The position numbers and the translations under genes are program-made. From the IMG/VR virus record IMGVR_UViG_3300044630_002552, positions 1 through 58,131 of that record: DNA of 58,131 nt, one strand, 5' to 3'. This DNA is from a virus (lineage: Duplodnaviria; Caudoviricetes). The notes beneath the pieces are model-generated. The model was not told the DNA's origin. It made no database searches and saw only the letters and a program-made list of their open reading frames with translations. Of this stretch, positions 9,509 through 57,595 are shown one piece after another; position 1 is the first letter of the stretch; every line of letters begins with the position of its first letter.

Positions 9509-11524
9509 ATGGCACTACTACCTACCGAAAAAAATTGGGGTAAAAACAATAAAGATATAAAATATCTTAATAGAGATTTTGCATCACTCCGTCAATCTCT
9601 TATTGAATTTACGAAAACATACTATGCTGATACGTTTAACGATTTTAATGAAGCATCGCCTGGTATGATGTTTTTGGAACAAGCTGCATTTGTTGGTGAT
9701 GTTCTTTCTTATTATACAGATGCTCAATTAAAAGAATCATTTATTAATTTAGCTGGAAACTATAAAAACGTTTTAACTCAAGCACAAAATTTAGGATACA
9801 AACCAAAATTATCAAAGCCAGCAACAACAACTTTATCAGTTTATCAAACCGTTCCAAGTACAGGAAGTGGTATTAATAATAAACCTGATTATACTTATGC
9901 GTTGAAGATTAAACAGGGTATGCAAGTAAAATCTACTCTAAATACTAATTTGATTTTTACAACTACCGATGATGTAGATTTTAATGATGCAACTGATAGA
10001 GAGGTTAGTGTATTTCAAACAGATGGTGTTAAGCCACTATTATATCTTATAACAAAAAAAGTAAAAGCAATAAGCGCAGAATCAAAATCTGTAACGCAAG
10101 AGTTTTTTAGTTTTATAAAAAACCCAATCGTATCAATAAGTGATACTAACTTTATTGGAATAAGTAATGTGGTTGATAGCAATGGTAATAAATACTACGA
10201 AGTTCCTTATTTGGCGCAAGACATGATATATGTAAAAATACCAAATGTAGAATCAAACGACCCAACGTTATCACAATATAGAGAATCTGTACCATATTTA
10301 TTAAAATTAATCCGCACACCTCGCAGATTTACAACAAAAGTAATGGATACTGGTGATATTGAATTACGTTTTGGTGGTGGTAGTGGGGATGTAAGTGATG
10401 AGATATTAATACCATCTACTAAAAATGTTGGTTTGGGTTTAAACAATTCAATTGATAAACTTGGTGAAACATTTGACCCAACACATTTTTTAAAAACATC
10501 AACATATGGTATAGCACCATCACAGACTACATTAACAATTAATTATTTATCTGGTGGTGGTATTTCGTCAAATGTACAAAGTGGTGATTTATCAACAATT
10601 AATTTAATTGAATTTGATGAAGATTTGATACAATATACACCAATATCATTACCACAATATAACCAATCAAAACAATCGGTAGCGGTTACTAATTTAGAAC
10701 CAGCAGTAGGTGGAGCTGGTGGTGAAACTATTGAAGAAATTAGAGAAAACGCAATAGCAAACTATGGTTCTCAAAATAGAGCAGTAACTCGTAAAGATTA
10801 CGAAATTAGAACACTTGCTATGGATGCTCAATTCGGTGGTGTTGCAAAAGTTTATGTAGCACAAGATACTGCATTGGATGATACAAAGGTACAATCGGTT
10901 TTAAGAGATGATACTGCTAGGCAACAATTTTTAAATTTAGTAAAATCATCAGTAGGTAAAAGTGATACGGAAATAGGTGACCAGATTGAAAGATATATTT
11001 TACAACAAAAATCTATAAACGCGGAGTTTAATAATCCATTTGCTATCAATATGTATCTTTTGGGATATGATGTTAATGGCAACCTCACCACACTAAATGA
11101 TGCAGTTAGACAAAATCTAAAAACATATTTAGAAGAATATAGAATGTTGACAGATGCGGTTAATATGTTAGATGGATTTGTTATTAATATTGGTATAAAC
11201 TATGAGATTACAGTATTTTCCAACTACAATAAACGAGAAGTTTTATTAAAAGCCAATCAAGCATTAATAAACTATTTTGATATTACAAAATGGCAAATGA
11301 ACGAACCTATAAATTTAAGTGAGATTGAATTGGAAATAGCAAATATAGATGGTGTATCTTCCGTTCAAAATGTGGAAGTTGTAAATTTAAGAGGTAGTAA
11401 TTATTCTACATACGCTTACAACATTAAAGAGGCAACTCGTAACAAAATGGTTTATCCATCTTTAGACCCTGCAATCTTTGAAATTAAATTTCCAAACACA
11501 GATATTAAAGGAAGAGCACTATAA
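9509..11524 (+). CDS. Baseplate wedge subunit gp6 / baseplate J-like
   Basis: RDFASLRQSL, DFNEASPG, AQNLGYKP, GGAGGETIEEIR...QNRAVTRKDY. Confidence 0.88.
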   Translation: MALLPTEKNWGKNNKDIKYLNRDFASLRQSLIEFTKTYYADTFNDFNEASPGMMFLEQAAFVGDVLSYYTDAQLKESFINLAGNYKNVLTQAQNLGYKPKLSKPATTTLSVYQTVPSTGSGINNKPDYTYALKIKQGMQVKSTLNTNLIFTTTDDVDFNDATDREVSVFQTDGVKPLLYLITKKVKAISAESKSVTQEFFSFIKNPIVSISDTNFIGISNVVDSNGNKYYEVPYLAQDMIYVKIPNVESNDPTLSQYRESVPYLLKLIRTPRRFTTKVMDTGDIELRFGGGSGDVSDEILIPSTKNVGLGLNNSIDKLGETFDPTHFLKTSTYGIAPSQTTLTINYLSGGGISSNVQSGDLSTINLIEFDEDLIQYTPISLPQYNQSKQSVAVTNLEPAVGGAGGETIEEIRENAIANYGSQNRAVTRKDYEIRTLAMDAQFGGVAKVYVAQDTALDDTKVQSVLRDDTARQQFLNLVKSSVGKSDTEIGDQIERYILQQKSINAEFNNPFAINMYLLGYDVNGNLTTLNDAVRQNLKTYLEEYRMLTDAVNMLDGFVINIGINYEITVFSNYNKREVLLKANQALINYFDITKWQMNEPINLSEIELEIANIDGVSSVQNVEVVNLRGSNYSTYAYNIKEATRNKMVYPSLDPAIFEIKFPNTDIKGRAL

Positions 11525-12633
11525 TGAACATATTTTACACAGCATCATCGGATGCAAGTATATACTTACAACAACCATACCAAAATACTGGTATTGATGA
11601 GATATTAGAAGTATCTAAACAATACTATGGTGATACAAAAGATATTGCTAGAACTTTAATAAAGTTTGATTTAACTGCCATATCTCGTAGTGTAGCTAGT
11701 GGTGAAATTCCATCCGGTTCTTTTACTGCATCGTTAGAATTAAAGTTAGCAGAAGCAAATGAAATACCCGCAACAATTACATTACAAGCATACCCAATCT
11801 CACAGAGTTGGGAAAATGGTACTGGTACTCGTTTTGATAAAATATCTACAAATGGTGTAACTTGGATTTATCGTAATGGTGATGATACAACATCTATATG
11901 GAATGATGATATAAATGGTATTACCGCATCTTTTACTGCTGGAACAACTGGTTCTTGGACTGGATATGGTGGTACTTGGCACACACAATCAGCTGATAGT
12001 AATACATACTCATATGAGTTAGGTGATGTAACTTTTGATATTACACAACAACTTCGTGTTTGGTTAAGTGGTAGTTATGCTAACAATGGCTTAATTATCA
12101 AATATAATTCAGAAGCAGAAGAAGATAGAGTTGATTATGGTTCTATAAAGTTTTTCTCAAAAGAAACAAATACCATCTACCAACCAAAATTAAAAATTAG
12201 TTGGCAAGAAACATCACCATCAACAGGTAGTTTAGCAGCTGTTGGTACTAGACAATATAGAGTTTATTCATCTAATTTAAAAAACCAATACAAGTTAGGA
12301 CAAAAAGTACAAATAAAATTATTAGCGAGAGAGTTATATCCAATTAAACAATTTAACCCGATAACATCTGGAAATGTTTATCCAACATTTGAATATCAAA
12401 CTGGATATAAATTACCAACAGAAAGTTATTATACTATAAAAGATACGATTACAAAAGAAACAATTGTACCATACGATGTAAATTCAAAAGTATTAGTAGG
12501 AACAGATAGTAATATCATTCGTCTAGACTTTACTAATTTTGCTTATGGTAGAGTATATAATCTAATGGTGAAAGTTGTTGAAGATTATAACGAAGAAGAA
12601 TTTGAATTGGGTGATTTTGAAATAATCAAATAA
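11524..12633 (+). CDS. Virion structural protein with DNRLRE/CBM96-like domain
   Basis: DASIY, RTLIKFDL, SWENGTG, NNGLII, FFSKE...QPKL. Confidence 0.6.
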   Translation: MNIFYTASSDASIYLQQPYQNTGIDEILEVSKQYYGDTKDIARTLIKFDLTAISRSVASGEIPSGSFTASLELKLAEANEIPATITLQAYPISQSWENGTGTRFDKISTNGVTWIYRNGDDTTSIWNDDINGITASFTAGTTGSWTGYGGTWHTQSADSNTYSYELGDVTFDITQQLRVWLSGSYANNGLIIKYNSEAEEDRVDYGSIKFFSKETNTIYQPKLKISWQETSPSTGSLAAVGTRQYRVYSSNLKNQYKLGQKVQIKLLARELYPIKQFNPITSGNVYPTFEYQTGYKLPTESYYTIKDTITKETIVPYDVNSKVLVGTDSNIIRLDFTNFAYGRVYNLMVKVVEDYNEEEFELGDFEIIK

Positions 12634-13643
12634 TGGCAATAGATAGAACAAATATAAATTATAGTGATAGCTTATCCGAAACACTATCAACTAAATTATA
12701 TACCGATGACTTAAATAGTATTCAGGTTGAAAAATCTGTTGATACAAAGGTTACGGAATTAATTAAACCATTACCAACTCCAAATTTAGATTTAGTACCA
12801 AAGCCAATATATGATGCGGAGGTGGAATTAAATGCGGAATTAAATAGAGAAATTACAAATTTAAATACTGAAATAGCAGATTTAACAGAAAAATTAAATC
12901 AAAAAACTTCGGATAGTGGTTCATTGTACGTTTCAAACGATTTCCTTAAAATAACAAATGCAAATTTAGAAAACAATTTGGCAGCACAAAATAATATAGT
13001 TAGTGAATTGAGAACAGGATTATCAACTGCTATACAAAAATCAATTTCAGAAAATGCGGAACGAACGGGATTGGAAGCCGAAACATCTGGTCTAACCGCA
13101 CAAAAAACTGCTTTATTAAAACAAATAGATACTTTAAATAATTTGGTAAAAGCGGCAGGTGCTTCATTGGAATCCGTTCAATCATCGTTAATTGATTCGC
13201 AACGGGCGTTAGCAGAAGCACAGACTTCAAATTCACAAGCGCAAGCTAGAGCAGCAGCTGAACAATCTATAAGAATACAATCGGAATTATCTAAAACAAA
13301 GAAAAAGAAAATTATTTGTAACGAACTATATAATCAAGGTTATTTACCACAGCACATTTGGAATGCGGATGAACGATATGGTAATATGATGTTTGATAAA
13401 GAACCAAAATTAGTATTAGGTTATATGATGTGGGCAAAGGATGTGGTTAAGTTTATGAAAGAAAAACCTAAATATACCAAATGGATTTATACGATAGTTA
13501 AACCTTGGACAGAACATATGGCATATGAGATGGGTGAATTACCTAATGATAATTTCATAGGAAAAATTATTCATAATGTTGGTAAGAAATATTGCTATTA
13601 TGTATATAATCAAACAATGAGTAAAAGAAATTTAGCATACTAA
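12633..13643 (+). CDS. Coiled-coil virion protein with distinct C-terminal globular domain
   Basis: Long heptad-like region followed by KKKIICNELYNQG domain. Confidence 0.55.
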   Translation: MAIDRTNINYSDSLSETLSTKLYTDDLNSIQVEKSVDTKVTELIKPLPTPNLDLVPKPIYDAEVELNAELNREITNLNTEIADLTEKLNQKTSDSGSLYVSNDFLKITNANLENNLAAQNNIVSELRTGLSTAIQKSISENAERTGLEAETSGLTAQKTALLKQIDTLNNLVKAAGASLESVQSSLIDSQRALAEAQTSNSQAQARAAAEQSIRIQSELSKTKKKKIICNELYNQGYLPQHIWNADERYGNMMFDKEPKLVLGYMMWAKDVVKFMKEKPKYTKWIYTIVKPWTEHMAYEMGELPNDNFIGKIIHNVGKKYCYYVYNQTMSKRNLAY

Positions 13644-13645: not shown

Positions 13646-15283
13646 ATGGCAATAAAAGATTTTAAAAATATCGAAAAAATAAATCAGGAGTTAGAGCAAA
13701 CTGCTCAACTAATAAAACCTGCTGATTTAAATATATTTAAAACATCCGCTAAAAGTGTAGATGATTTTGGATTATCAAAAAATGATGCTATTGAGTTCCG
13801 TTTATATGATATTTCAAATAATCTATTAGAACAAACTAATGGTGTTAAAGTTAGATATATCCACAAAGATGAACTATTCAAATATTTAAAACAGTCATTA
13901 GATACAACAACTGGTGAAAAAATATTTGAAATTGATGTTGAGAAATTGGTATTTGACGCAGGATATGGAAATGGTGAGTTTAGAGTAAGTTTTGCATTTG
14001 TTAAAAACTATGTAGGAAACGAAAATAAAAAGAAAAGAGTTTGGATACATGAAGTATCACCATCACGAACTGAAATTAGAGTATTACCATTGTTAGGCTC
14101 CGATAGCAGTATTAATGTGGATTTGGAAGATAGATATTATTCTTTTATGGATAACGTAGTTGAGCTTCGTCAATCTTATAAAGAAATACAAGCATTTTTA
14201 GATAAAATAGAATTAAACATATCAACACTTATAGATGATTATTTTATATCATCTTTTGGACCAAAATATATTGAAGTAATAAACAAAGACTTTATTTTCG
14301 GTGGACCAGATGGTTATACGAATTTCAAAAATAAAGTTTATGTAAATTTCCGTGAATCGGTTATAAATGAAATCAATGGAAAACAATTTAGATTGGGTTC
14401 GGTTGATTATGGGCAACAAATAAGTGCTACAATTGATTTAGATGATTTTGTATCAACTGCAGAATTTAGACTAATTATAGAAAATAGATTACACGATTCG
14501 GTTGAATATAATATTGAAAGACTTCCTAAAAAAATATATAGTTTGTTATTTAAAGAAGTAATTGGTGAATATAGACCATCGAAAGAATTACAATCTTTAT
14601 TAAATACTGGATATAATTCAGTTACTAAATTACAATCTATACAAGATTCCACCGGCGTAAATCCTAACCAAACAAATAGAACAACAACTAAATTAGCGGA
14701 TAGAGTTATATACGAAGAAGAGAAAAAGAAAGAGTTACCACAAGATAAAGAGCCACGTAGAGAACCATATGTTCCACCAACTATATACCGAGAACCTGCG
14801 GGAACTGTTTTGGTTTCAGATGTAATACCTGGTAGAAAACCACCAGAGGCAATAAATCCAGGATTTGAAACAAGTGATTATGGATTCACACCAGGCGCAC
14901 CAATCGGCCCTCCAGTAATTCCATTAGAACCAGTAATACCACAAGGTACATCCACTTCTATATCACCATCTCAATTCTACTATACGTTAGATAATGAAAC
15001 GGATAGTGACCAGACCGTAACATATAATGTTGGTCCTAACGCAACACTATTGACTATGGTAGTTCCAGCCAGAGGAAATAGAATTGTTTGTGCAAATGTT
15101 GGAACTGTTAATGGTAATGTTACAAAGAATGCAAGAGCTGGTTGTGGTGGTGGAGAAGTAATAACCACACCTACAAGAGCAGCAGCTCCAACAACCACTA
15201 CTTCGTCTGGCGGAGGAGGTGGAGGCGCAGGCGATGGTGGTAGAAGTAATGATTTATTTATTGATTCATCAATCACCTCATAG
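13646..15283 (+). CDS. Putative virion structural protein, Pro/Thr/Gly-rich C-terminus
   Basis: 545 aa; IHEVSPSRTEIRV motif; low-complexity tail. Confidence 0.55.
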   Translation: MAIKDFKNIEKINQELEQTAQLIKPADLNIFKTSAKSVDDFGLSKNDAIEFRLYDISNNLLEQTNGVKVRYIHKDELFKYLKQSLDTTTGEKIFEIDVEKLVFDAGYGNGEFRVSFAFVKNYVGNENKKKRVWIHEVSPSRTEIRVLPLLGSDSSINVDLEDRYYSFMDNVVELRQSYKEIQAFLDKIELNISTLIDDYFISSFGPKYIEVINKDFIFGGPDGYTNFKNKVYVNFRESVINEINGKQFRLGSVDYGQQISATIDLDDFVSTAEFRLIIENRLHDSVEYNIERLPKKIYSLLFKEVIGEYRPSKELQSLLNTGYNSVTKLQSIQDSTGVNPNQTNRTTTKLADRVIYEEEKKKELPQDKEPRREPYVPPTIYREPAGTVLVSDVIPGRKPPEAINPGFETSDYGFTPGAPIGPPVIPLEPVIPQGTSTSISPSQFYYTLDNETDSDQTVTYNVGPNATLLTMVVPARGNRIVCANVGTVNGNVTKNARAGCGGGEVITTPTRAAAPTTTTSSGGGGGGAGDGGRSNDLFIDSSITS

Positions 15284-15337
15284 GATAGAAACCCAAAATC
15301 CTAAAAAGTGATAATTATAGTAAAGAAATAATACAAA

Positions 15338-18300
15338 ATGGCTTTAACACCAGAGCAAAAGGCGGAAGCGGATAAATTGGGAATACCCTACGATACATAC
15401 GAAGCCAGCATCGCACAGATGATAGCTGATTTGGCAAAAATCGTAGAAGGATTTAATGCTCCTGGTGGTATAAACACCGCCGAAGGCCAAGCCGCATTGA
15501 CGGCAGGTATAGCTGCTAATATTGGTAATATAAATCCACTCACAATGTTGGGTAGTGATACTATTGGGCCAATACAAAGTGGTATTACTTTAACAAGAGC
15601 TGATGGTTCTAGGGAGGTTATATCATCAACCAATCCTACGCAAGATTTATCATCGCAAACCGCTATTGATAAATTAATGAAAGATGTTGTTAATATAAAT
15701 TATTTAGATAACAACGCTGGTAAAAATGTAGATGTACCAATCACCCGTCCAGTTAAAACAATCAATGTAAAGGTAGTAAATAATTCAGTATCAAAAGGAA
15801 CTACAACTTACACTATAAATGGTCAAATCGTAGAAGAGGGTAGTACTACTCAATTTAATTTAGATAAATTAAATGATAGTACAATAATTTTTCCAAATTA
15901 TGATACAAATAAATACACCATTTTAAATAGATTTATAATTGGTAAAAGCGGTGATGGTTTGGTTTTAAATGAAGTAGAGGGTAGTACGCCAAAAGAACCA
16001 ATATTTTTTCCAAAAACACCAGCAACTCTTGAATTAAATTATAAATATCAGGTAATTCAAAATCCCCCATCTACTAAAACCAAATCAAAAACTATTGCTG
16101 GTGGAACAACCTATACAGTAAAGCAAGAATTTGGATTTGTAACAAATTATAGACAATCTCCGTTTAACATTAGAGTTGATAGTGCAGATTTATCATCACC
16201 ATTATTATTAAAAACAGATGATGGTGCTACTATTACAACCGACAATAGAGAATTACGGGATGTTTCATTTTCAGTATCAAATACTGGTAACTATGATTTA
16301 GTTGGATTAAAATGGGCTTATGCCGGGGATGATAATTTTACAACAGATGGATTTAGAGATGGTAGATTGATTATACCATCAAACAAATTAATCCGTAACA
16401 TAAATGTTATGGTTGATTTGAAACCAAGCGAAAACAAAATCGCTGGTGTTCAAGTCGATTCATTACAGCCTAATTTTAAAATTTCAGGTACAACTTTACG
16501 TTCAAAATATAAAACACAAACGATACAAGTACCAATTGCAATAAGAAATGCAGAAGGTGTTATTGTTAAAACTCCGTTTGCTCAAAGAGTAATTGGTGCT
16601 ACTGCTGGTAGTATATACGAAAATAAGGTAATTACATTAGATTTAAAAGCTGATTTTAATAATAACATTGGTTCATTTAAAGTTGCTTTTATATCAACTA
16701 ATAGTGTGTTTGGAGATGCACCAAATCCTGGCTACACTACCATAAATTTAAGTGAAGGATATGATGTACCATTAATTAACGATTTAGATTTTCCAGATTC
16801 AATAACAATTCCAACATATACGTTGGGAGATTACCCATTTAGTACAACATATCGTTCAGATACCGCAGATTATGTAATTGTATATCACACCAGTGAGGAA
16901 GATAAAAATATAATTGGCAAGTATGGTAAAGCAGATACATTAAACTTTAATTTTAATGATTTAAAAAGCAAAGGCGCTTTAAATTCATCATCAAAAATTG
17001 ATTTGATATTTGTTCCATACGATGAAAGTAATGTGAATGGTCAATCCATAATGGAAGCTATTCGTGGTGATGAAACTAAAATTACAATATCAGTAACGGA
17101 GCCTCCTCTTTATATTTCAACCGATAAATTAAAACAAGATTTTTATAATTCAATAATTAGTAATATTGATTTTAATTTAGAAGATACTCCAAAGTATTTA
17201 AATCATCTTGCTGAATTTGATAAAGAAGATAAACAAATTGTAATATCAAACTGGGATGAAGATAATTCAACATTTACTAATTTTAGAATTGATGAATTAG
17301 GAAATCAAATACCTGTTGATATACAACGAAGTATTGTTTTAAAATTATACGAACCATTACCGACAACTATTACTAAAAATGATAGTTTGTGGATTAGTAA
17401 AATAATGGCCTTGCCAATTGTAAGAACAATTACAATAACAAGTGAAAGTGAGCAAAATTTAAAATATTTAAGAGGTCCTAATTTTGATATAGATGTAGAT
17501 TTTGTTAAAGAACAATCAACATCGTTTGAATCGTTAGACCAACTTATTCTTTCCGGTTCTACATCATCACAACAAATTGTTGATAAATACTTATACGATA
17601 ATTTATTTGAGGTAGATAAGGTCAATATAGATTATAGTGATTTTAATAATTTTGTAAAATATAGTTCGGCGGTTGAAAGATTAGCCAACTTTAAATACAA
17701 AAAAGAATTATTAGAATACTATGATGATAGGATTTTTCATTTACAAACATTTACCGGCTCTGTTAGTATTATAAATGAAATAACATCATATGAAACAAAA
17801 AAAGTAAATTTATTAAATGCATTTGATGGTTGGGAAAACTATGTGGTATCATCATCTGTTTCAAATTTTCCAAAGGTCGGTTTATTTGCTGGTAAATTTA
17901 CAACTGGTTCATTTGATGCAAATGGAAACTACATTGTTCAGTATGCACCAACTGGTTCTGGTACAACAACTAATTGGTTTAACTCTACGTTATCTATTGC
18001 TGATAATTATGATAAAAACAATAGAAACTTATTAAAAAACAATATACCATTACATCTTATAGATAGTGGTGATAATGATAGTTATTTGTTGTTTTTAGAT
18101 ATGATTGGTCATCACTTTGATATTATTTGGTCTTACATAAAAGGTATGGCCGAAACAAAGAACATAACGGAAACAAATGATTATGGTATTCATGATGATT
18201 TCTTATATGATTATCTAAAATCATTTGGTTGGGATGCAAAAAATCTAAACTCAAATCAACAACTATGGAAATATGCATTTGGAAAAGATGCAGATGGGAA

Positions 18301-20527
18301 TGTAGTTGAAGAAAATACACCAGAGCAAAGAACCAAATCAATTTGGAGAAGAATTGCTAATAACTTACCTTATTTATTAAAACACAAAGGTACAAAGCGT
18401 GGTATTCAAGCTCTATTAAATTGCTATGGAATTGCTAACTCTAACTTATCTATTATAGAGTTTGGTGGACCGGATACCGATGATGCATTAGAGTCTACAA
18501 AATATATATACGATACACAAACTGCAAATTTAAATTTCATAAGCGGTTCGTATTTAACTACAAATTGGAGTGGTTCAAACGCAATTGAGTTAAGAATCAA
18601 ACCCGCGTATTCTGGTAGTGGAATGACTTTAGTTTCGGGTAGTTCATTTAAACTATCATTAGTACCGGGTAATCATTCCTCACAAACATCTGGTAGTTTA
18701 GAATTAACATTTACATCAGGTTCCCCTGCTTTAACAGTAACCTATGTAACAAATCAATATCAATTCTACGATGGAAACTACCATAGTATATTATTAAATA
18801 GAGAAGCAATTGGTACTGATTCTACATTCACACTTTACTATAAAAATGGTGAAAAGGATAGGATAATAAAATCCGGAAGTTATTCGTTTGGAATAGGTAG
18901 TGCTCCTTGGAATACTGGTTCAACTATACAATTGGGTGGTAATTATGTAGGTGAAATGGATGAGTTCCGTATGTGGAATACTGCATTGAGTGAAAGTGCA
19001 TTTGACTTACACGTTTTGCATCCGGAAGCTATAAATGGTAATCATATATCAGCATCTACAACCGATTTACAAGTTCGTTTAGATTTTGAGTGGCCAAAGA
19101 ATTTGGCATTGACGGCATCTGTTAAAAACGTAGCACCAAAAAATACATATCAAACATATGTAAGTGCAAGTGGGTTTAATAATATAGCAGCATATCCATA
19201 CCAATATGAAATTATAGATAGAACTGTTAGTTTGGAAATACCAAATTCAGGAGCATCTCGATATAGTTCTAACAAAGTAAGATTTGAGGACCAAACTCTA
19301 ATAAGTGATTTATCATACAAATCGCGTTCAACTAAAAAAGCATACGAAACATCAAAGCGTGATAGCAATAGATTAGGATTATTTTTCTCTCCAAATAAAG
19401 ATTTAGATTTGGATATTGCTAAATCATTTGGTGGAGTTAGTATAGATGATTATATTGGGGCATACGATGACCAGTATCAGGACACTTACAAAGATTTAGC
19501 CGATTTAAGAAACTACTATTTTGAAAGAATAGGTGAAAGAGATATTTATCAATTTATCAATTTAGTTCGTCTTTATGACAAATCGTTATTTCTAAACCTT
19601 AAAGAGATGATACCTGCAAGGGTTAAAGCTACAACTGGTTTATTAATAGCACCACACTTATTAGAAAGAAGTAAGCATAGAATACGGCCGGTAACTACCG
19701 AATATACATCATCAAACGCAGATACTACTATTGTAATTACAGATACTACACTAATTAGTGGTGATGTGAATATATACGATGCTAATTTAATGTTGACTGC
19801 ATCTACATTATTGGTTGGTGAGTTTGGTAATTACGAAGCATCTTTAAGTTTAGCAACATCAAATGTATTAGAAGCTGAAAATGATAGTTATGAAACTACA
19901 ATTAACACATTAGATATAGATAATTTAGTTTTGGTTGATAATTACTACGAAACCAATCAAACCGCATCTATTGATACTAGAATAATATCAGGAAGTTTAA
20001 CGGCTGAATTTGAATTATTAGGCAGTACAATTGTAAATGTAGGTGAATTATATAGTGATGTTGGATATAATACTTATTTTGACAATGGTTGGGCTAGGTT
20101 AAATTATGAAGATTATGATGGTACATATAAATCCAGAAAAGTAAGAGGATTTGTAGTTACTCGTAGAAGTGATTTGATAATACCTATGAATGTTGGTGGA
20201 ATTTCTGGCTCAATTTATGAAGATATATTAACAGATGTCTTTACACAAGAATTAATATTACAAGAGGGATACCAAACTGCTTCATTAGCTAGTGATGTAA
20301 ATATAGTTTCTATCACAACTGCGAGTGGATATTTAAAATCTCACTATATATATAATAAAGATAGAAGCATAGGTTTGGAAAACACATTCTTCAAAGGTGC
20401 TAAACAAACAACTGCAACTACTATTGATGGTAGAGCAGCGGTTGAAGAGTTCGTATCTAATCCTACTATCCTACGTGTTAATGAGAATGGAAGACCTAAC
20501 AACGAACCGATATTGGTTGTTGATTAA
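15338..20527 (+). CDS. Large baseplate/tail protein with LamG-like lectin domain
   Basis: 1729 aa; IWRRIANNLPYLLKHKGT...LLNCYG (P2 gpI/gp7-like baseplate motif); YVGEMDEFRMWNTALS (LamG-like). Confidence 0.6.
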   Translation: MALTPEQKAEADKLGIPYDTYEASIAQMIADLAKIVEGFNAPGGINTAEGQAALTAGIAANIGNINPLTMLGSDTIGPIQSGITLTRADGSREVISSTNPTQDLSSQTAIDKLMKDVVNINYLDNNAGKNVDVPITRPVKTINVKVVNNSVSKGTTTYTINGQIVEEGSTTQFNLDKLNDSTIIFPNYDTNKYTILNRFIIGKSGDGLVLNEVEGSTPKEPIFFPKTPATLELNYKYQVIQNPPSTKTKSKTIAGGTTYTVKQEFGFVTNYRQSPFNIRVDSADLSSPLLLKTDDGATITTDNRELRDVSFSVSNTGNYDLVGLKWAYAGDDNFTTDGFRDGRLIIPSNKLIRNINVMVDLKPSENKIAGVQVDSLQPNFKISGTTLRSKYKTQTIQVPIAIRNAEGVIVKTPFAQRVIGATAGSIYENKVITLDLKADFNNNIGSFKVAFISTNSVFGDAPNPGYTTINLSEGYDVPLINDLDFPDSITIPTYTLGDYPFSTTYRSDTADYVIVYHTSEEDKNIIGKYGKADTLNFNFNDLKSKGALNSSSKIDLIFVPYDESNVNGQSIMEAIRGDETKITISVTEPPLYISTDKLKQDFYNSIISNIDFNLEDTPKYLNHLAEFDKEDKQIVISNWDEDNSTFTNFRIDELGNQIPVDIQRSIVLKLYEPLPTTITKNDSLWISKIMALPIVRTITITSESEQNLKYLRGPNFDIDVDFVKEQSTSFESLDQLILSGSTSSQQIVDKYLYDNLFEVDKVNIDYSDFNNFVKYSSAVERLANFKYKKELLEYYDDRIFHLQTFTGSVSIINEITSYETKKVNLLNAFDGWENYVVSSSVSNFPKVGLFAGKFTTGSFDANGNYIVQYAPTGSGTTTNWFNSTLSIADNYDKNNRNLLKNNIPLHLIDSGDNDSYLLFLDMIGHHFDIIWSYIKGMAETKNITETNDYGIHDDFLYDYLKSFGWDAKNLNSNQQLWKYAFGKDADGNVVEENTPEQRTKSIWRRIANNLPYLLKHKGTKRGIQALLNCYGIANSNLSIIEFGGPDTDDALESTKYIYDTQTANLNFISGSYLTTNWSGSNAIELRIKPAYSGSGMTLVSGSSFKLSLVPGNHSSQTSGSLELTFTSGSPALTVTYVTNQYQFYDGNYHSILLNREAIGTDSTFTLYYKNGEKDRIIKSGSYSFGIGSAPWNTGSTIQLGGNYVGEMDEFRMWNTALSESAFDLHVLHPEAINGNHISASTTDLQVRLDFEWPKNLALTASVKNVAPKNTYQTYVSASGFNNIAAYPYQYEIIDRTVSLEIPNSGASRYSSNKVRFEDQTLISDLSYKSRSTKKAYETSKRDSNRLGLFFSPNKDLDLDIAKSFGGVSIDDYIGAYDDQYQDTYKDLADLRNYYFERIGERDIYQFINLVRLYDKSLFLNLKEMIPARVKATTGLLIAPHLLERSKHRIRPVTTEYTSSNADTTIVITDTTLISGDVNIYDANLMLTASTLLVGEFGNYEASLSLATSNVLEAENDSYETTINTLDIDNLVLVDNYYETNQTASIDTRIISGSLTAEFELLGSTIVNVGELYSDVGYNTYFDNGWARLNYEDYDGTYKSRKVRGFVVTRRSDLIIPMNVGGISGSIYEDILTDVFTQELILQEGYQTASLASDVNIVSITTASGYLKSHYIYNKDRSIGLENTFFKGAKQTTATTIDGRAAVEEFVSNPTILRVNENGRPNNEPILVVD

Positions 20528-20590: not shown

Positions 20591-21220
20591 ATGGGATATT
20601 TAGATAATACTACAATTACTGTTGATGCTATTCTTACAAAAAAAGGAAGAGAGAAGTTAGCATCCGGACAATCATTAAACATTACACAATTTGCTTTGGG
20701 TGATGATGAAATTGATTACGCTTTATACGATGCAGCACACCCAAAGGGTTCTGCTTACTATGATGCATCAATAAAAGCTACTCCTATTTTAGAAGCATCA
20801 CCAGATGAAACTCAAGTATTGAAGTATAAATTGGTTACATTACCAAAGAATACTACAAAAATTCCACAAGTTTCATTGAATGTTACTATAATAGCGGCTA
20901 AAACAACATCGGGTCAATTCCCAATAACACCAACAACTTCTCCATCTGGAAATAAGAATGCTGGTTATACTGCAATATTGGCTAACAAAAACGCAGGTTC
21001 TCTTATTGGTGAAGGTTTGACAAGTGCAAATACAACTTCAACAACTTTCTTGGGTTCAAATATTACAACAACCGCAGAAGTTGCAAAGGGTTTAACTTTC
21101 TCTTTCATACCTAATAGTTCATTAACATCAAACGTTTCTACAACAATAACAATATTTGGAAATGAGACAGGTGGTTCAGTAACAATTCCAGTTACAGTAA
21201 CCTATGTAACACCTGTATAA
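20591..21220 (+). CDS. Virion structural protein (tail/baseplate region)
   Basis: DAILTKKGREKLA...ITQFALGDDEIDY resembles tail-fibre-base N-termini; beta-rich. Confidence 0.55.
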   Translation: MGYLDNTTITVDAILTKKGREKLASGQSLNITQFALGDDEIDYALYDAAHPKGSAYYDASIKATPILEASPDETQVLKYKLVTLPKNTTKIPQVSLNVTIIAAKTTSGQFPITPTTSPSGNKNAGYTAILANKNAGSLIGEGLTSANTTSTTFLGSNITTTAEVAKGLTFSFIPNSSLTSNVSTTITIFGNETGGSVTIPVTVTYVTPV

Positions 21221-36294: not shown

Positions 36295-36304
36295 TAAATA
36301 AATT

Positions 36305-36404
36305 ATAATAGGATACATAAAAAATAAGTTTCAACAATACAAAATAAATAAGCTATGATAGAACACATACAAAATCAGTTTCAACAATACAAAATTAATC
36401 AGTT
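36305..36404 (+). repeat. Imperfect 50-nt tandem duplication of the radical SAM gene 5' end
   Basis: 36305-36354 vs 36355-36404: 42/50 identical by manual alignment. Confidence 0.85.
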
Positions 36405-37389: not shown

Positions 37390-37449
37390 TCATAAGTACG
37401 ATGCCCCCGCTTATACTTTGTACAGAAAACTTATTTAATAAAAAAGTAT

Positions 37450-37458
37450 ATATTTATA
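37450..37458 (+). promoter_or_regulatory. Putative late promoter motif ATATTTATA
   Basis: Recurrent motif, 4 nt before ATG 37463. Confidence 0.6.
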
Positions 37459-37462
37459 GTAT

Positions 37463-53448: not shown

Positions 53449-53691
53449 ATGATTAACATTGAAGTAAAAGACGGCAATATAGCTGGAGCATTAAAGAAAT
53501 TAAAGAAAAAGTTTGATGCAATTGGTGTTGTTAAAGAATTAAGAGATAGACAACAATTTACAAAACCATCCGTTACTAAAAGAGAAATGATGGAAAAAGC
53601 TGAAAGAAAACAATTAGTTCAGCAAAAAGACCTTTACAGAGGTAAAAAATTAAAAGAAATACCAAAAAAATTTCGTAGTTTATATAAATAA
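53449..53691 (+). CDS. rpsU: Phage-encoded 30S ribosomal protein bS21
   Basis: IEVKDGNIAGALKKLKKKF..GVVKELRDRQQFTKPSVTKR matches the bS21 pattern. Confidence 0.9.
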   Translation: MINIEVKDGNIAGALKKLKKKFDAIGVVKELRDRQQFTKPSVTKREMMEKAERKQLVQQKDLYRGKKLKEIPKKFRSLYK

Positions 53692-53714: not shown

Positions 53715-53859
53715 ATATCTATATAATGTAATACCAATATCATTTGGTTAATATCCTGTTAGTTGATGAATAGTTTATCCTTATATAAACTCACCGAAAA
53801 TCTAACAAAATTCTATTAGACCCGAAATCAATGGGTTTAGAAAAAATCAAGTATAAAAA
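53715..53859 (+). promoter_or_regulatory. Late promoter variant (ATATCTATA) and structured 5' leader of the scaffold/capsid operon
   Basis: Motif 53715-53723; stems ACCAA/TTGGT, TGTTAG/CTAACA enclosing AGTTTAT/ATAAACT, TAGACCC/GGGTTTA. Confidence 0.5.
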
Positions 53860-55032: not shown

Positions 55033-55051
55033 CAAATAAGGAACAAAACAA

Positions 55052-56698
55052 ATGGCACAATTTAATTTAAACAAATTAATGGAAGGCAAAAACCCAACTG
55101 CGGTTATGCTTGAGCAAACTCGCGGGTTGAAAAACAAGTGGGAAAAAACTGGTTTATTAGAAGGCTTAACTGGTGCAACTGAAGAGCACGGAATGGCTGT
55201 AATTTTAGAAAACCAAGCAAAACAATTATTAGATGAGACTACAAAGACAGGTTTTTCAGGTGGTTCTGAAGAATGGTCTGGTGTAGCTTTACCATTGGTT
55301 CGCCGTATATTCGGTGAAATCGCAGCAAAGGAATTTGTTTCGGTACAACCAATGAACTTACCATCAGGTTTGATTTTCTACATGGATTTCAAATATGGTA
55401 CAACTGGAAAAGGATATGGTGATGCATCTAGCACATCATTATATGGTGGAACATCTGCAGCGAAGTTAGGTTCAACTAACGTAGCTCAAAATGGTCTTTA
55501 CGGTGAAGGACGTTATGCATATTCAGTAAATGATAATTCTGCTATCGTATCTTTCGCTACTGCAGCTAAAGTTACTGCTTTATCTGACATCAATTTTGAT
55601 TCATCTTTATCGGCTTCAGTTGCTGCTGGTAACTTGTACAAAATTACTTTAACATCTGCTTCAGTTGCAGCATTATCTGCTGACACTAACGCAGTACGTT
55701 CATTCTATGTATCTGGTTCATTACAAGGTGGAACTTCTGGTTCAATCAACACTTACTACCCAGCATTGACTACTTACTCTTCTAATGGTACTGTATCATT
55801 AATCGTAAGTTCATCAGTATTGGCTTCAGGTTCAACTGCTGCAACTATTGGTTTAGTATATTCTGTACAGCCAACTGCAACATCTCGTGGTGATTTCGAA
55901 GATAGAGACCCTATCAACAACCCATCAGGTGGAACTAACTTGAACATTCCTCAAGTAGATTTAGAATTGAAATCAGAGGCAATCGTTGCTAAAACTCGTA
56001 AGTTGAAAGCAGTTTGGACTCCAGAATTGGCACAAGATTTGAACGCTTACCACTCAATTGATGCAGAAGCTGAATTGACTGCTATGTTATCTGAATATAT
56101 CTCATTAGAGATTGACTTGGAAATCTTGGATTTATTGAAAGGAAACGCATTAACTACTGAATACTGGTCTACAAAGATTGGTAATGAGTGGAATGGTTCA
56201 GAATTTGCAATTGATGCAGATTCATCTAACGCAAGTGCTTACACTAAAAACACTTGGTTCCAGACTTTAGGAACTAAATTAAACAAAGTATCTAACAAGA
56301 TTCACCAATTGACAATGCGTGGTGGAGCTAACTTTATCGTTGCTTCTCCAGACGTTTGTACTATTTTAGAATCAATCCCAGCTTTCTCTGTAAACGCTGA
56401 TAAAGATGCTAAACAATTCGCAGCTGGTGTAACTCAAGTTGGTTCTTTGGCTAATCGTTACACAGTTTACAAAAACCCTTACATGACTTCTAACGAAATC
56501 TTATTGGGTTACAAAGGAAATAACTTCCTTGAGACTGGTGCGGTTTATGCTCCATATGTACCTTTAATCTTGACTCCATTGGTGTACGACCCAGATAACT
56601 TCACTCCACGTAGAGGTGTTATGACTCGTTACGCTAAAAAATTGGTTCGTCCAGAATTTTACGGTAAAGTATTGGTTGAAGGTTTGGCTAATATCTAA
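55052..56698 (+). CDS. Major capsid protein (T4 gp23-like)
   Basis: KWEKTGLLEG, ILENQ, LPLVRR, VQPMNLPSGLIF, AKTRKLKAVWT.ELAQDL.A.H..DAEAEL, YAPYVPL, GVMTRY. Confidence 0.96.
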   Translation: MAQFNLNKLMEGKNPTAVMLEQTRGLKNKWEKTGLLEGLTGATEEHGMAVILENQAKQLLDETTKTGFSGGSEEWSGVALPLVRRIFGEIAAKEFVSVQPMNLPSGLIFYMDFKYGTTGKGYGDASSTSLYGGTSAAKLGSTNVAQNGLYGEGRYAYSVNDNSAIVSFATAAKVTALSDINFDSSLSASVAAGNLYKITLTSASVAALSADTNAVRSFYVSGSLQGGTSGSINTYYPALTTYSSNGTVSLIVSSSVLASGSTAATIGLVYSVQPTATSRGDFEDRDPINNPSGGTNLNIPQVDLELKSEAIVAKTRKLKAVWTPELAQDLNAYHSIDAEAELTAMLSEYISLEIDLEILDLLKGNALTTEYWSTKIGNEWNGSEFAIDADSSNASAYTKNTWFQTLGTKLNKVSNKIHQLTMRGGANFIVASPDVCTILESIPAFSVNADKDAKQFAAGVTQVGSLANRYTVYKNPYMTSNEILLGYKGNNFLETGAVYAPYVPLILTPLVYDPDNFTPRRGVMTRYAKKLVRPEFYGKVLVEGLANI

Positions 56699-56720
56699 TC
56701 CAACAATCAAAAGTAAAGTG

Positions 56721-56752
56721 AAAAGAGAGAGGAGAAATCCTCTCTTTTTTTT
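56721..56752 (+). terminator. Intrinsic terminator after MCP
   Basis: AGAGAGGA-GAAA-TCCTCTCT plus T-run. Confidence 0.9.
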
Positions 56753-56769
56753 GTTTATATGAAAACTAT

Positions 56770-56778
56770 ATATTTATA
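56770..56778 (+). promoter_or_regulatory. Putative late promoter motif ATATTTATA
   Basis: Recurrent intergenic motif. Confidence 0.6.
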
Positions 56779-56802
56779 TAATATAAAAACAATAGGATTA
56801 AA

Positions 56803-57339
56803 ATGGCAAACTCATTACATAGAGCATACGATTTAGATATTATAGCACCGAGTGGTAGTACCAAAGTGATGGTAGTAACGGAAGATGGATTTCAATTTGC
56901 ATATTCAACAGTAGAAGCAATCCAATCACCATTGGATGTGGCTGGATTAGCAACCGATGCTGATATTACATCTTTAAGCGCATCAATAGCCGCATTAAGT
57001 GGTTCGATTGGTGTAAGTGGTAGTTATTCTACACAAGATAAATTCTTCGCAACCAACAATGGTGGTGGACAAAACTTTAAAGTTGGTGATGATGCTTGGA
57101 TTGGTGATGTAAATCGTTCAAATACAATGCAAGTATCAGGTGTACAAAATGCAGCAACTGGATATATTAAATTTGCAAGTGGTTCTAATACACCTGTAAT
57201 TGGTTCGAATGGTGCAAATCGTTTAAACATTGCAAATATCCCAACATATGCTAATAATGCAGCTGCATTAGCAGGCGGGTTAGTAGCAGGTGATATTTAT
57301 ATCTATACTGCAAGTGATTTTTTAGCAATAGTTCATTAA
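56803..57339 (+). CDS. Putative virion structural/decoration protein
   Basis: S/G/A-rich; C-terminal PTYANNAAALAGGLVAGDIY; follows MCP. Confidence 0.55.
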   Translation: MANSLHRAYDLDIIAPSGSTKVMVVTEDGFQFAYSTVEAIQSPLDVAGLATDADITSLSASIAALSGSIGVSGSYSTQDKFFATNNGGGQNFKVGDDAWIGDVNRSNTMQVSGVQNAATGYIKFASGSNTPVIGSNGANRLNIANIPTYANNAAALAGGLVAGDIYIYTASDFLAIVH

Positions 57340-57358
57340 AATTATAAATAAAAATAAA

Positions 57359-57595
57359 ATGGCAGAATATAGAGCATATAAAGTATCAACCGTAAGTGGT
57401 TCGGTTGCATTAGGAAAAGGAACGGCATATCCAAATGTTTGGGGAGTTATGCGAGGTGAAGGAAACCCAAGTGGTAGTGTAGCATTAGCAGGTGGTGGTG
57501 TTATAAATTTAACATCAATTGATAATCATCAAATATTTCCTTGCTACCCGATATATTTAACAATTTCATCAGGTGCAATGATTATTTTGGAATAA
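57359..57595 (+). CDS. Small putative structural protein
   Basis: 78 aa, beta-rich, followed by a terminator. Confidence 0.55.
   Translation: MAEYRAYKVSTVSGSVALGKGTAYPNVWGVMRGEGNPSGSVALAGGGVINLTSIDNHQIFPCYPIYLTISSGAMIILE

Follow-up and report, generated by a model that had tools for sequence, protein, structure and literature searches.

A [ST]-[GA]-S tripeptide enriched in the virion proteins of a phage clade, and its possible role as a glycosylation sequon

Results

The tripeptide in the window

The window, by which we mean the whole 58,131-nt stretch of T4-like phage DNA analysed here, contains 55 ORFs; 40 of the 55 proteins have a homologue (55-98% identity) in G002, the nearest complete relative. 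Eight virion proteins are rich in the tripeptide [ST][GA]S (carriers), two neighbouring structural proteins avoid it, and a variable sugar-modification cluster forms part of the context (Table 1). The fibre is identified by tail-fibre PHROG matches together with a match to Pfam PF13884, and the 1729-aa protein gives a weak match to Pfam Laminin_G_3 (residues 1078-1219). The AlphaFold model of the 369-aa protein (pLDDT 68) comprises two beta-sandwich domains, with matches that are only generic (CBM/adhesin-like). The 178-aa protein, which carries 3.4 copies per 100 aa, matches nothing in Pfam or PHROG and lacks homologues in G002, immuto and Mel-JY01.

Table 1. Positions of the features discussed, with copies of [ST][GA]S observed and expected from shuffled sequences.
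Feature	Position	Strand	Observed	Expected	P	Remarks
Variable sugar-modification cluster	988..4584	+				context; epimerase, methyltransferase, weak GT2, 2OG oxygenase
Peripheral baseplate protein, 369 aa	11524..12633	+	7	0.8	0.0005	carrier; directly after gp6-like wedge protein
Baseplate-module protein, 545 aa	13646..15283	+	0	0.7		avoider
Tail/baseplate protein, 1729 aa	15338..20527	+	21	3.2	0.0005	carrier; ConA-like lectin domain
Tail-module protein, 209 aa	20591..21220	+	0	0.8		avoider; Thr-rich
Tail-module protein, 408 aa	21242..22468	+	9	1.5	0.0005	carrier
Tail-module protein, 436 aa	22539..23849	+	6	0.8	0.0005	carrier; absent from the initial annotation's list
Tail fibre, 1471 aa	28889..33304	+	18	7.3	0.0015	carrier; C-terminal Peptidase_S74 intramolecular chaperone
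Major capsid protein (MCP), gp23 family	55052..56698	+	5	1.8	0.03	carrier
178-aa protein	56803..57339	+	6	0.8	0.0005	densest carrier; just after MCP
78-aa protein	57359..57595	+	2	0.28	0.03	weak carrier, weak singly; after MCP

Expected numbers were obtained from composition-preserving shuffles (2000 for each protein). The 55 ORFs together contain 83 copies against 30 expected. In the eight carriers, a set picked once the counts were known, 74 copies are found against 16.3 expected from a global shuffle, 19.1 from a 30-residue local shuffle and 20.2 from a 12-residue local shuffle; taken singly, five carriers reach P = 0.0005. Manual counts in the initial annotation for the 369-, 408-, 178- and 78-aa proteins were reproduced exactly, as were the five copies in the MCP, and the "many more" that it had placed in the two long tail proteins are 21 and 18. 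Its impression that the motif is rare elsewhere also holds: terminase, portal, primase and protease contain none, the Mre11-Rad50-like protein and the 1333-aa protein one apiece, and the remaining 47 ORFs nine in all (13.4 expected).

Shuffles and permuted motifs, the checks that the initial annotation had named, both set the tripeptide apart from composition. Six permuted or substituted patterns stay close to expectation in the carriers, among them [ST][GA]T (20 vs 16), [GA]S[ST] (25 vs 16), S[ST][GA] (13 vs 16), GSS (5 vs 4.5) and SSG (5 vs 4.6). SAS taken singly is not significantly enriched (6 vs 3.6), and SGS is the top non-trivial tripeptide in unbiased rankings from each phage tested. 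Both serine positions are encoded by AGY as well as TCN codons: the signal is therefore at the protein level. Nor do the carriers resemble one another, as had been noted; BLAST similarity among them is limited to a C-terminal stretch of 25 residues common to the 408- and 436-aa proteins. Together these data show that enrichment of [ST][GA]S in the virion proteins is real.

Residue preferences and structural setting

Specificity was determined on a pool of 16,302 aa drawn from three phages (about 30-55% identity). Position 1 is enriched for S (4.8-fold) and T (4.4-fold), position 2 for G (5.8-fold) and A (3.0-fold), and position 3 for S (4.6-fold) and not for T (0.99), D (1.2) or N (0.8). The preceding residue tends to be I, V or F (about 2-fold) and the following residue F, Y or L (1.9-2.9-fold), while K, D, E and R are scarce on either side (0.1-0.35-fold). 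The motif is thus sharp – S or T, then G or A, and S alone at the third position – and lies between hydrophobic, uncharged residues.

A model of residues 1040-1300 of the 1729-aa protein (pLDDT 83.3) includes 11 copies, seven of which directly precede the start of a strand, a position shared by 26% of tripeptide windows overall; the SGS and TGS copies fill inter-strand loops of 3-6 residues. Copies with G are thus placed, in this one confident model, in predicted short strand-loop-strand turns. In the lower-confidence model of the 369-aa protein, two of seven copies lie at strand starts. The MCP copies all fall at residues 187-261, inside a segment (117-300) that has no alignment to T4 gp23.

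Distribution across phages and turnover of sites

Enrichment extends to orthologues. The 74 orthologous ORFs of the 369-aa family (from IMG/VR loci) contain 543 copies against 67 expected, and each of the 46 distinct orthologues has 5-15; orthologues of the 1729-aa protein have 446 against 101, and those of the 408-aa protein 89 against 21. Avoidance extends likewise: 49 orthologous ORFs of the 545-aa protein contain a single copy against 16.3 expected (control [ST][GA]T, 9 vs 16.2), and 22 of the 209-aa protein none against 12.3 (control 22 vs 26).

Relatives infecting Flavobacterium, Microcystis and Rhodothermus are enriched too, and because these hosts belong to three phyla the reader of the motif is likely to be phage-borne rather than host-encoded. 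Each of G002, G004, G005, G006, immuto, Mel-JY01 and RM378 has 2-19 ORFs with Poisson P<1e-3; the whole genomes of three huge phages (LR756508, LR756504 and LR756511) and a cyanophage (S-RIM12) have none at that threshold. Nor is enrichment seen in T4 (14 copies vs 26 expected in 28 structural proteins), and the counterpart of the 369-aa protein in LR756508 is free of the motif. Enrichment is clade-specific, not generic. Depletion in non-carriers is modest, with ratios of 0.60-0.95; outgroups give 1.04-1.18, and RM378 gives 1.38. RM378 has 81 copies against 35.8 expected (control 32 vs 30), most of its carriers lacking a BLAST homologue in G002.

Individual sites are seldom retained. The 1729-aa proteins of the window, immuto and Mel-JY01 have 0-3 of their 8-21 sites in common, and the MCPs 0-1; the homologues of the 408-aa protein have four copies in immuto and seven in Mel-JY01, mostly at different positions. 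In the 369-aa family, three sites are 83-96% conserved, and where conservation is highest the serine at position 3 is swapped for N or D, not T. The motif is maintained by turnover of sites at steady density and not by inheritance of sites, which accords with the view of the initial annotation that it is selected.

Enzymes that co-vary with the motif

Six enriched genomes have 38 core genes in common. For only four of these does LR756508, a relative without enrichment, have no homologue, and the four include two glycosyltransferases, a GT-A of 208 aa and a GT-B of 421 aa. Apart from an endolysin, the enzymes encoded by the co-varying core genes are all glycosyltransferases. A comparison of motif and glycosyltransferase content had been suggested at the outset, and presence of the GT-A agrees with enrichment in 12 of 12 genomes (T4 being represented by its 28 structural proteins only); the four whole genomes without an enriched ORF are all GT-A-negative. 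For RM378 the prediction was blind: distant GT-A homologues were detected first and enrichment afterwards. MCPs of the seven GT-A-positive genomes have 5, 6, 6, 4, 3, 4 and 1 copies (the last being RM378), nearly all of those in the six with 3-6 copies lying at residues equivalent to 124-265 of the window MCP; MCPs of four GT-A-negative phages have 0-1. This correlation rests on few evolutionary events (one or two). In the TerL tree LR756508 is nested among GT-A-positive phages (support 96/97), so that the GT-A label changed at least twice; the MCP tree is compatible with just one change.

The GT-A profile finds GmaR as its best PDB match, over its full length (E = 4.2e-10), has an invariant D-x-D motif, and represents a virus-only family (Atlas clusters 97-100% viral). 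Two GT-B genes accompany its gene in a conserved cluster; the 464-aa GT-B matches chlorovirus B736L (PDB 3OY2; E = 2.5e-11) and is found also in LR756508, and thus does not track the motif. The likeness to GmaR is remote, and the cluster could serve another substrate.

G002 and Mel-JY01 additionally encode a member of the TibC/Aah family. The G002 ORF scores 286 bits against an equivalog cut-off of 200 (NCBIfam TIGR04414, "autotransporter strand-loop-strand O-heptosyltransferase"), matches TibC in the PDB (E = 5.5e-51) and in alignment retains its four iron-finger cysteines and Lys-230, residues whose roles are described in PMC4358343. Its gene immediately precedes five structural genes rich in the motif, and next to it and to the fibre genes lie genes for one sulfotransferase and for two oxygenases of the 2OG-Fe(II) type; no ADP-heptose synthesis gene is present among the eight ORFs scanned upstream. 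The enzyme has 251 relatives in IMG/VR. Across 80 loci the ORF just downstream contains 104 copies where 20.6 would be expected, the control standing at 14 vs 19, and in 13 of the 80 the enzyme is, by ORF length, fused to a GT1 domain. It is missing from immuto and from the complete genomes G004, G005 and G006, all enriched, yet occurs in LR756504, where no ORF is enriched; this distribution rules it out as the general reader. The GT-A and TibC-like genes both lie outside the window, and candidate enzymes in the window's own genome are extrapolated from G002.

The initial annotation had also tied the motif to two glycan clusters within the window, and this link fails. The first, at 988-4584, includes a 2OG-Fe(II) oxygenase of the "sporadic carbohydrate cluster" type; only its GT2-like ORF (3296-3934) has a homologue in G002, and hhalign of this ORF against the GT-A profile found nothing. 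The second (34355-41464) is no cluster of glycan genes; it consists of a radical-SAM/SPASM island, lacking homologues in G002, immuto and Mel-JY01, followed by the nucleotidyltransferase-like 1333-aa core protein, which is found also in the non-enriched LR756508.

Discussion

We tentatively propose, as a possibility a little short of an even case, that [ST]-[GA]-S is the recognition sequon for a cytoplasmic, phage-encoded O-glycosylation of the virion. The targets – the capsid insertion domain, the proteins after the MCP, the outer baseplate, the fibres and, in relatives, the sheath – would be exposed parts of the particle, and a soluble glycosyltransferase could reach a Ser/Thr hydroxyl presented in turns of folded or folding proteins. 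Initiation would most likely fall to the virus-specific 208-aa GT-A (GT2), with the two clustered GT-B enzymes extending the glycan; some lineages, including G002, also encode an O-heptosyltransferase of the TibC/Aah family that is fused to a GT1 domain. Sugar attachment, acceptor residue and motif-reading enzyme are all predicted. A modifier sequon had been the reading of the initial annotation, and its support from enrichment, unrelated carriers, turnover and glycosyltransferase co-variation stands, that from the window's own glycan clusters having fallen away.

The motif might instead be a matter of structure alone: a sequence that the beta-sandwich and fibre domains of this phage lineage favour for tight turns or strand starts, read by no enzyme and left unmodified, with the GT-A match reflecting shared ancestry. 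The short inter-strand loops occupied by G-containing copies fit this well, as do the three conserved sites of the 369-aa family, where the third serine gives way to N or D, typical turn residues, and not to T; moreover, the literature searched holds no mass, staining or structural record of modification for any of these phages, and the enzyme correlation needs only one or two events. We nevertheless consider it rather unlikely: homologous modules of T4 and LR756508 do without the motif, which arose independently in unrelated folds (including RM378 proteins that lack a homologue in the window's clade), most sites are unconserved though their density is, Ser and Thr differ 4.6-fold at position 3 with N and D not enriched overall, and neighbouring structural proteins avoid the motif. 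That enrichment is a by-product of S/T/G/A-rich composition, low complexity, repeats or a DNA-level word is scarcely credible. Carriers are indeed richer in these residues than enzymes, and repeat-rich fibres inflate the controls too (collagen-like fibres in G002, a repeat protein in Mel-JY01), but every shuffle leaves 16-20 copies against 74, the six control patterns stay at expectation, codons are diverse and the carriers mutually unrelated.

Other readers of the motif can be envisaged. The TibC/Aah-GT1 fusion could serve the window's lineage, adding heptose, within strand-loop-strand turns, to the Ser/Thr at position 1, in the way Aah and TibC act on the beta-helices of autotransporters. 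Its equivalog score, PDB match and retained residues, its 251 relatives, its place upstream of motif-rich genes and the five-fold enrichment of the downstream ORF all point that way, and the published acceptor description and glycosylated TibA peptides resemble the motif, heptosylated TibA peptides being rich in hydrophobic-S-G-G and G-S-A strings. This is improbable even so, given that four genomes as enriched as G002 lack the enzyme, LR756504 has it with no enriched ORF, the window itself does not encode it and no gene for ADP-heptose synthesis turned up among the ORFs scanned; most TibC-bearing loci may also belong to the GT-A-positive clade, so that the downstream signal is not independent. 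Just as improbable is a reader that is not a glycosyltransferase – a kinase, a sulfotransferase, another serine modifier, or a turn-binding chaperone or assembly factor. A strict serine at position 3 would suit several serine-directed enzymes, and candidates are at hand in the sulfotransferase and oxygenases of G002 and the radical-SAM/SPASM enzyme of the window; yet the radical-SAM island is without homologues in the enriched relatives compared, the co-varying core enzymes are, endolysin aside, glycosyltransferases only, and no kinase family is found among the 55 window ORFs.

Comparison with known systems

The proposed glycosylation has partial counterparts in several known systems. Bacteroidota, the phylum of one host (Flavobacterium), possess general O-glycosylation that is directed to many proteins by a short sequon, D-[ST]-[AILVMT], and acts in the periplasm. 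This sequon does not explain the phage motif, which recurs in phages of Microcystis and Rhodothermus and in which a preceding Asp is depleted to 0.21-fold. Chloroviruses are reported to glycosylate their capsid protein at non-canonical sites with their own cytoplasmic enzymes. Their glycans are N-linked and their sequons different; B736L is matched by the 464-aa GT-B, unlike the motif shared with LR756508. GmaR of Listeria monocytogenes (GT2), the best solved relative of the co-varying GT-A, is described as a cytoplasmic flagellin O-GlcNAc transferase acting on Ser/Thr of an exposed filament protein. We know of no sequon for GmaR, and the phage GT-A differs from it in being a bare 208-aa catalytic domain. 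In mycobacteriophages, phage glycosyltransferases decorate capsid and tail proteins (Freeman et al. 2023, via PMC12619734), the glycans being placed by that citation at the C-termini of capsid and tail-tube subunits; here the predicted sites are internal, tripeptide-defined turns in many proteins. The known substrates of Aah and TibC (BAHT, TIGR04414) are beta-helices of E. coli autotransporters, whereas those considered here are phage virion proteins (putatively), and no consensus is reported for Aah, in contrast to the sharp phage motif; the phage enzyme also differs in its occasional GT1 fusion and its patchy distribution. Both systems would nonetheless involve cytoplasmic O-glycosylation of many serines on beta-rich surface proteins, and in G002 and Mel-JY01 a true member of the family is encoded directly upstream of motif-rich genes.

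A T4-like virus and its relatives

On the basis of Pfam and PHROGs matches the window is a T4-like myovirus, with 55 substantial ORFs, all on the plus strand, and a GC content of about 31% (see table). The deposited phages closest to it by major capsid protein (MCP) are LR756508 (uncultured, 484 kb; 53%), Flavobacterium phage immuto (52%), Microcystis phage Mel-JY01 (50%) and Rhodothermus phage RM378 (39%). Its nearest complete relative, G002, is an IMG/VR contig of 194,856 bp (CheckV 100%) that is collinear with the window and carries homologues of 40 of the 55 window proteins at 55-98% identity. Ribosomal protein S21 and peptide deformylase are phage-encoded, and both are syntenic in Mel-JY01. 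Of the 1471-aa tail fibre, no more than 441 residues can be aligned to the G002 counterpart (87% identity), and the rest is replaced, which fits an exchange of receptor-binding modules among close relatives.

Features of the window, with observed and expected copies of [ST][GA]S in the eight carriers
Feature	Coordinates	Strand	Basis	Copies	Expected
Peptide deformylase	4649-5266	+	Pfam/PHROGs
gp25-like and gp6-like baseplate wedge proteins	9085-11524	+	Pfam/PHROGs
Carrier (369 aa)	11524-12633	+		7	0.8
Carrier (1729 aa)	15338-20527	+		21	3.2
Carrier (408 aa)	21242-22468	+		9	1.5
Carrier (absent from the initial annotation's list)	22539-23849	+		6	0.8
Carrier: tail fibre with Peptidase_S74 chaperone	28889-33304	+	Pfam/PHROGs	18	7.3
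Large terminase	42802-44397	+	Pfam/PHROGs
gp20-type portal	45603-47441	+	Pfam/PHROGs
Ribosomal protein S21	53449-53691	+	Pfam/PHROGs
Carrier: gp23-family major capsid protein (MCP)	55052-56698	+	Pfam/PHROGs	5	1.8
Carrier	56803-57339	+		6	0.8
Carrier	57359-57595	+		2	0.28
Prohead protease	in window	+	Pfam/PHROGs
Primase, SbcCD-like nuclease	in window	+	Pfam/PHROGs

A sharply defined tripeptide is enriched in virion proteins

The initial annotation had noted, from the sequence alone, that the tripeptide [ST][GA]S recurs in virion proteins. Every one of its counts was reproduced on recount, and the enrichment proved stronger than that annotation could have known. Over all 55 ORFs there are 83 copies compared to 30.2 expected from the composition of each protein. 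Eight motif-rich virion proteins (the carriers) together hold 74, compared to 16.3 after global shuffling, 19.1 after local shuffling within 30 residues and 20.2 within 12; the other 47 ORFs hold 9 (13.4 expected). The excess thus survives composition-preserving shuffles, global and local, which rules out composition or low complexity as its source, and the permuted or substituted patterns [ST][GA]T, [GA]S[ST], [GA][ST]S, S[ST][GA], [ST]S[GA], GSS and SSG each occur at expectation in the pooled carriers. SAS taken alone (6 vs 3.6 expected) is not significant. Because both AGY and TCN serine codons are found at both serine positions, the signal lies at the level of protein, and a DNA word behind the motif is ruled out. 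BLAST among the carriers found no similarity except one 25-residue C-terminal stretch, and aligning five of them with one another gave no useful information.

Residue specificity was computed on the pooled carriers of the window, immuto and Mel-JY01 (16,302 aa). The first position admits S (4.8x) and T (4.4x), with no other residue above 1.4x; the second G (5.8x) and A (3.0x); the third only S (4.6x), with T at 0.99, D at 1.2 and N at 0.8. Hydrophobic residues are raised on both sides (F, Y and L 1.9-2.9x after the motif; I, V and F about 2x before it), and the charged residues K, D, E and R drop to 0.1-0.35x on either flank. In an unbiased ranking of tripeptides SGS is the top non-trivial entry in the carrier sets of the window, immuto and Mel-JY01 each, and in rankings over all ORFs of immuto and the related complete genomes G004, G005 and G006 it is again first, followed by TGS, TAS and SAS.

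The enrichment is confined to some T4-like phages

Genome-wide, [ST][GA]S is enriched in G002 (253 copies vs 108 expected), in immuto (181 vs 85) and in G004, G005 and G006 (2.5-2.8x), and in the tail module of Mel-JY01 (for example 13 vs 2.3 and 9 vs 0.8); each of these six genomes has 4-19 ORFs at p<1e-3. Among 874 ORFs in 80 IMG/VR loci around gp6-like genes there are 1298 copies vs 482 expected, with three control patterns at expectation. The motif is nevertheless no generic structural property of T4-like phages: in 28 structural proteins of T4 (including gp34-37, gp10-12, gp7, Hoc and gp23) it falls below expectation (14 vs 26.2), and the whole genomes of LR756508, LR756504, LR756511 and the cyanophage S-RIM12 contain no ORF at Poisson p<1e-3. 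Total counts in these four are 190 vs 140, 184 vs 149, 159 vs 138 and 140 vs 102, respectively, the control pattern being equally raised in S-RIM12 (161 vs 114). In LR756508 the homologue of the 369-aa carrier contains not a single copy.

Density is kept while sites turn over

Over groups of orthologues the excess is large (543 vs 67 expected in the 369-aa family, 446 vs 101 in the 1729-aa family and 89 vs 21 in the 408-aa family), and all 46 distinct orthologues of the 369-aa protein (42-92% identity) carry 5-15 copies. The sites themselves are less stable. Three sites in the 369-aa family are conserved at 83-96% and four at about 50%, the others being lineage-specific; in the 1729-aa protein just 0-3 of 8-21 sites coincide between the window, immuto and Mel-JY01, and in the MCP 0-1, depending on the alignment. 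The upkeep of density through turnover of sites suggests that the motif itself is under selection. MCPs of seven GT-A-positive genomes (see below) have 5, 6, 6, 4, 3, 4 and 1 copies, the last being RM378, whereas those of four outgroups have 0-1. Where there are 3-6 copies (six of the MCPs), almost all of them fall at residues equivalent to 124-265 of the window protein, an insertion region that gives no alignment to T4 gp23.

Structural proteins next to the carriers steer clear of the motif: in the 545-aa family there is 1 copy vs 16.3 expected (control 9 vs 16.2) and in the Thr-rich 209-aa family, with 22 orthologues, none vs 12.3 (control [ST][GA]T 22 vs 26), these contrasts being inflated by shared ancestry. 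The window member of the 209-aa family (20591-21220; 16.7% Thr) and a second Thr-rich window protein (33304-34257; 29% Thr) contain no copy.

Within the fold the motif was located on predicted models. That of residues 1040-1300 of the 1729-aa protein, a ConA-like domain encoded at 18455-19237 (pLDDT 83.3, pTM 0.83), contains 11 copies, 7 of them directly before the start of a strand, a place taken by 26% of tripeptide windows overall. The SGS and TGS copies occupy loops of 3-6 residues joining consecutive strands, and the three A-containing copies lie in other contexts. The weaker model of the 369-aa protein (pLDDT 68; two beta-sandwich domains) has only 2 of 7 copies at the start of a strand, and Foldseek returned only generic beta-sandwich, CBM and adhesin matches for it (TM-scores 0.14-0.31).

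A virus-only glycosyltransferase co-varies with the motif

The ORFs of G002 were compared with five other enriched genomes and then with the non-enriched LR756508. Homologues in all five were found for 38 ORFs, of which four lack a counterpart in LR756508: a 208-aa GT-A glycosyltransferase, a 421-aa GT-B glycosyltransferase, an endolysin and a 157-aa protein. The GT-A matches Pfam PF00535, and the Atlas clusters of its family are 97-100% viral. It belongs to a conserved cluster (GT-B of 464 aa, GT-B of 421 aa, a small ORF and the 208-aa GT-A) that immuto, Mel-JY01 and RM378 also have; its 464-aa GT-B, which gave a match to chlorovirus B736L, is found in LR756508 too. When a profile of five GT-A orthologues was searched against the PDB, the best of 21 matches (E 4.2e-10; next 3.5e-7), and the sole full-length one, was GmaR, the flagellin O-GlcNAc transferase of Listeria. 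The similarity is remote, with a D-x-D motif that is an invariant D-A-D in 5/5 aligned orthologues and aligns to the D-A-D of GmaR.

The GT-A is absent from LR756508, LR756504, LR756501, LR756511, S-RIM12 and T4, and tblastn against deposited phages found it only in immuto and Mel-JY01. A profile search of RM378 recovered two distant homologues (E 1.3e-14 and 8.7e-6). Motif enrichment was therefore predicted for this phage, and was then found: 81 copies vs 35.8 expected (control 32 vs 30; SGS 28 vs 10.6), with enriched ORFs that cluster at 64.8-78.5 kb and mostly lack a G002 homologue. Specificity is also alike (SGS, TGS and TAS 2.3-2.7x; SGT, TGT, GSS and SSG 0.75-0.94x). A separate T-hydrophobic-S pattern of RM378 (loci L294-L300; genome-wide TLS 34 vs 13, TVS 29 vs 11.5, TFS 25 vs 9.8, each 2.5x) was not seen in the window clade.

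Across phages the correlation between motif and glycosyltransferase content that the initial annotation had called for holds: presence of the GT-A and enrichment agree in 12/12 genomes, with the status of T4 taken from its 28 structural proteins only. In a terminase (TerL) tree LR756508 is nested among GT-A-positive phages (support 96/97), so that the GT-A label must have changed at least twice; an MCP tree allows a single change. In the tree the window was labelled GT-A-positive by extrapolation from G002. For its own GT2-like ORF (3296-3934), membership of the GT-A family was rejected after a comparison by hhalign found nothing (probability 0.1).

A TibC-like enzyme in some lineages

Both candidate protein O-glycosyltransferases, the GT-A and an enzyme like the O-heptosyltransferases of the Aah/TibC family, are encoded outside the window, and none of its 55 ORFs gave a GT9/TibC match. 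A 1226-aa protein of Mel-JY01 has GT1, TibC_1st and GT9 matches. In G002 the product of the TibC-like gene (L093:1288-3249:-) is fused to a GT1 domain, and its 335 C-terminal residues match TibC (PDB 4RB4; E 5.5e-51). By synteny with G002, such a gene would be expected about 20 kb past the 3' end of the window. The protein scores 286.3 bits (cut-off 200) over positions 16-374 of 374 against TIGR04414, the NCBIfam equivalog for 'autotransporter strand-loop-strand O-heptosyltransferase', and Cys-339, 342, 358 and 370 and Lys-230 of TibC all align to identical residues; PMC4358343 describes the four cysteines of TibC as an iron finger and Lys-230 as sugar-binding.

Ahead of the gene lie a pair of GT2 genes, two 2OG-Fe(II) oxygenase genes and a sulfotransferase gene, and no autotransporter substrate gene is paired with it: the five genes on its 3' side encode motif-rich phage structural proteins, including collagen-like fibers and the sheath. 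This modification island of G002 (L103, G002 80001-100000; ORFs 13774-19202, minus strand), the oxygenases of which are prolyl-hydroxylase-like, is located immediately upstream of the genes for collagen-repeat tail fibers with Peptidase_S74 chaperones; its predicted content suggests that collagen-like fibers may be both hydroxylated and glycosylated.

Homologues were found in only 4 of 50,697 deposited phage records (PP395634, LR756501/503 and LR756504). They are common in uncultured phages, with 251 confirmed relatives in IMG/VR. Among the best 80 of these 251 loci (L179-L258) the enzyme is a stand-alone ORF of 300-400 aa in 65, and the ORFs directly downstream contain 104 motif copies vs 20.6 expected (control 14 vs 19). 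Nevertheless, the TibC-like enzyme cannot be the general reader of the motif, because it is absent from immuto, G004, G005 and G006, which are as enriched as G002, and present in LR756504, which shows no [ST][GA]S enrichment.

Alternative explanations

The initial annotation had proposed a sequon read by a phage-encoded glycosyltransferase or other modifier, and had drawn support from two 'glycan clusters' in the window. The proposal is strengthened by the co-variation of the GT-A, and we regard a convergently selected, putative sequon as the best-supported reading, at a little under an even chance, with the GmaR-like GT-A as the leading candidate for the enzyme that recognizes it and the TibC-type enzyme as a probable lineage-specific addition. 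The window clusters do not give it the support they were taken to give. One of them, the first, varies between relatives and bears no relation to the GT-A family that co-varies with the motif. The second resolves into a radical-SAM island and a core nucleotidyltransferase-like protein. The island (34355-37389: a PHROG-4417 protein, a 340-aa protein and a radical-SAM/SPASM enzyme at 36355-37389) lies between the tail fiber and the 1333-aa protein, and none of G002, immuto and Mel-JY01 has a homologue of it, which rules out the radical-SAM/SPASM enzyme and its neighbors as readers. The core protein (1333 aa, 37463-41464), with a predicted N-terminal cytidylyltransferase-like fold and DUF5661, is conserved in all relatives; it was rejected as a correlate because these include the non-enriched LR756508, and since its immuto counterpart is annotated as a NadR-type NMN adenylyltransferase, nucleotide or NAD metabolism is likelier for it than glycan synthesis. 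A reader encoded by the host and the Bacteroidota sequon D-[ST]-[AILVMT] were rejected as well: hosts span three phyla, and Asp precedes the motif 3 times vs 14.4 expected.

The main rival is that [ST][GA]S is a lineage-specific structural turn that is read by nothing. In its favor, at the most conserved sites of the 369-aa family the third serine is exchanged for N or D rather than T, as would be expected of a structural turn residue; against it stands the turnover of sites at constant density. We consider this rival rather unlikely, and less likely than the sequon reading.

Implications

If the sequon reading is correct, a fuller and more tentative scheme is phage-run general O-glycosylation, with sequon-directed modification conducted by a T4-like group that infects Flavobacterium, Microcystis, Rhodothermus and many uncultured hosts. 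The virus-only GT-A would start sugars at [ST]-[GA]-S turns on all exposed layers (the capsid insertion domain, sheath, outer baseplate and fibers) and its GT-B partners would lengthen the glycan. In some lineages another protein O-glycosyltransferase may have been added, one taken over from the autotransporter heptosyltransferases of bacteria. Sequons would be gained and lost rapidly at constant density, in the manner of a viral glycan shield, and be avoided in proteins that need to stay bare.

Should the motif be a sequon, sites of virion glycosylation could be predicted from sequence alone, the glycan coat of a phage would be seen to evolve by turnover of sites, and a function would be at hand for a virus-only GT2 family and for the 251 IMG/VR phage relatives of autotransporter heptosyltransferases, with consequences for how phages adsorb, how stable they are and how grazers or immune systems recognize them. 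Should it be structural only, it is an unusually sharp, lineage-specific turn signature that marks exposed virion proteins in the clade. Since immuto, Mel-JY01 and RM378 are in culture, the sequon hypothesis is directly testable.

A few examples of glycosylated phage particles are known. The literature searched describes no short sequon for a tailed phage, and reports neither the motif nor virion modification in immuto, Mel-JY01 or RM378. A known parallel is the pairing of the Aah or TibC gene with that of its autotransporter substrate: in G002 the principle of this pairing persists, but the class of substrate differs.
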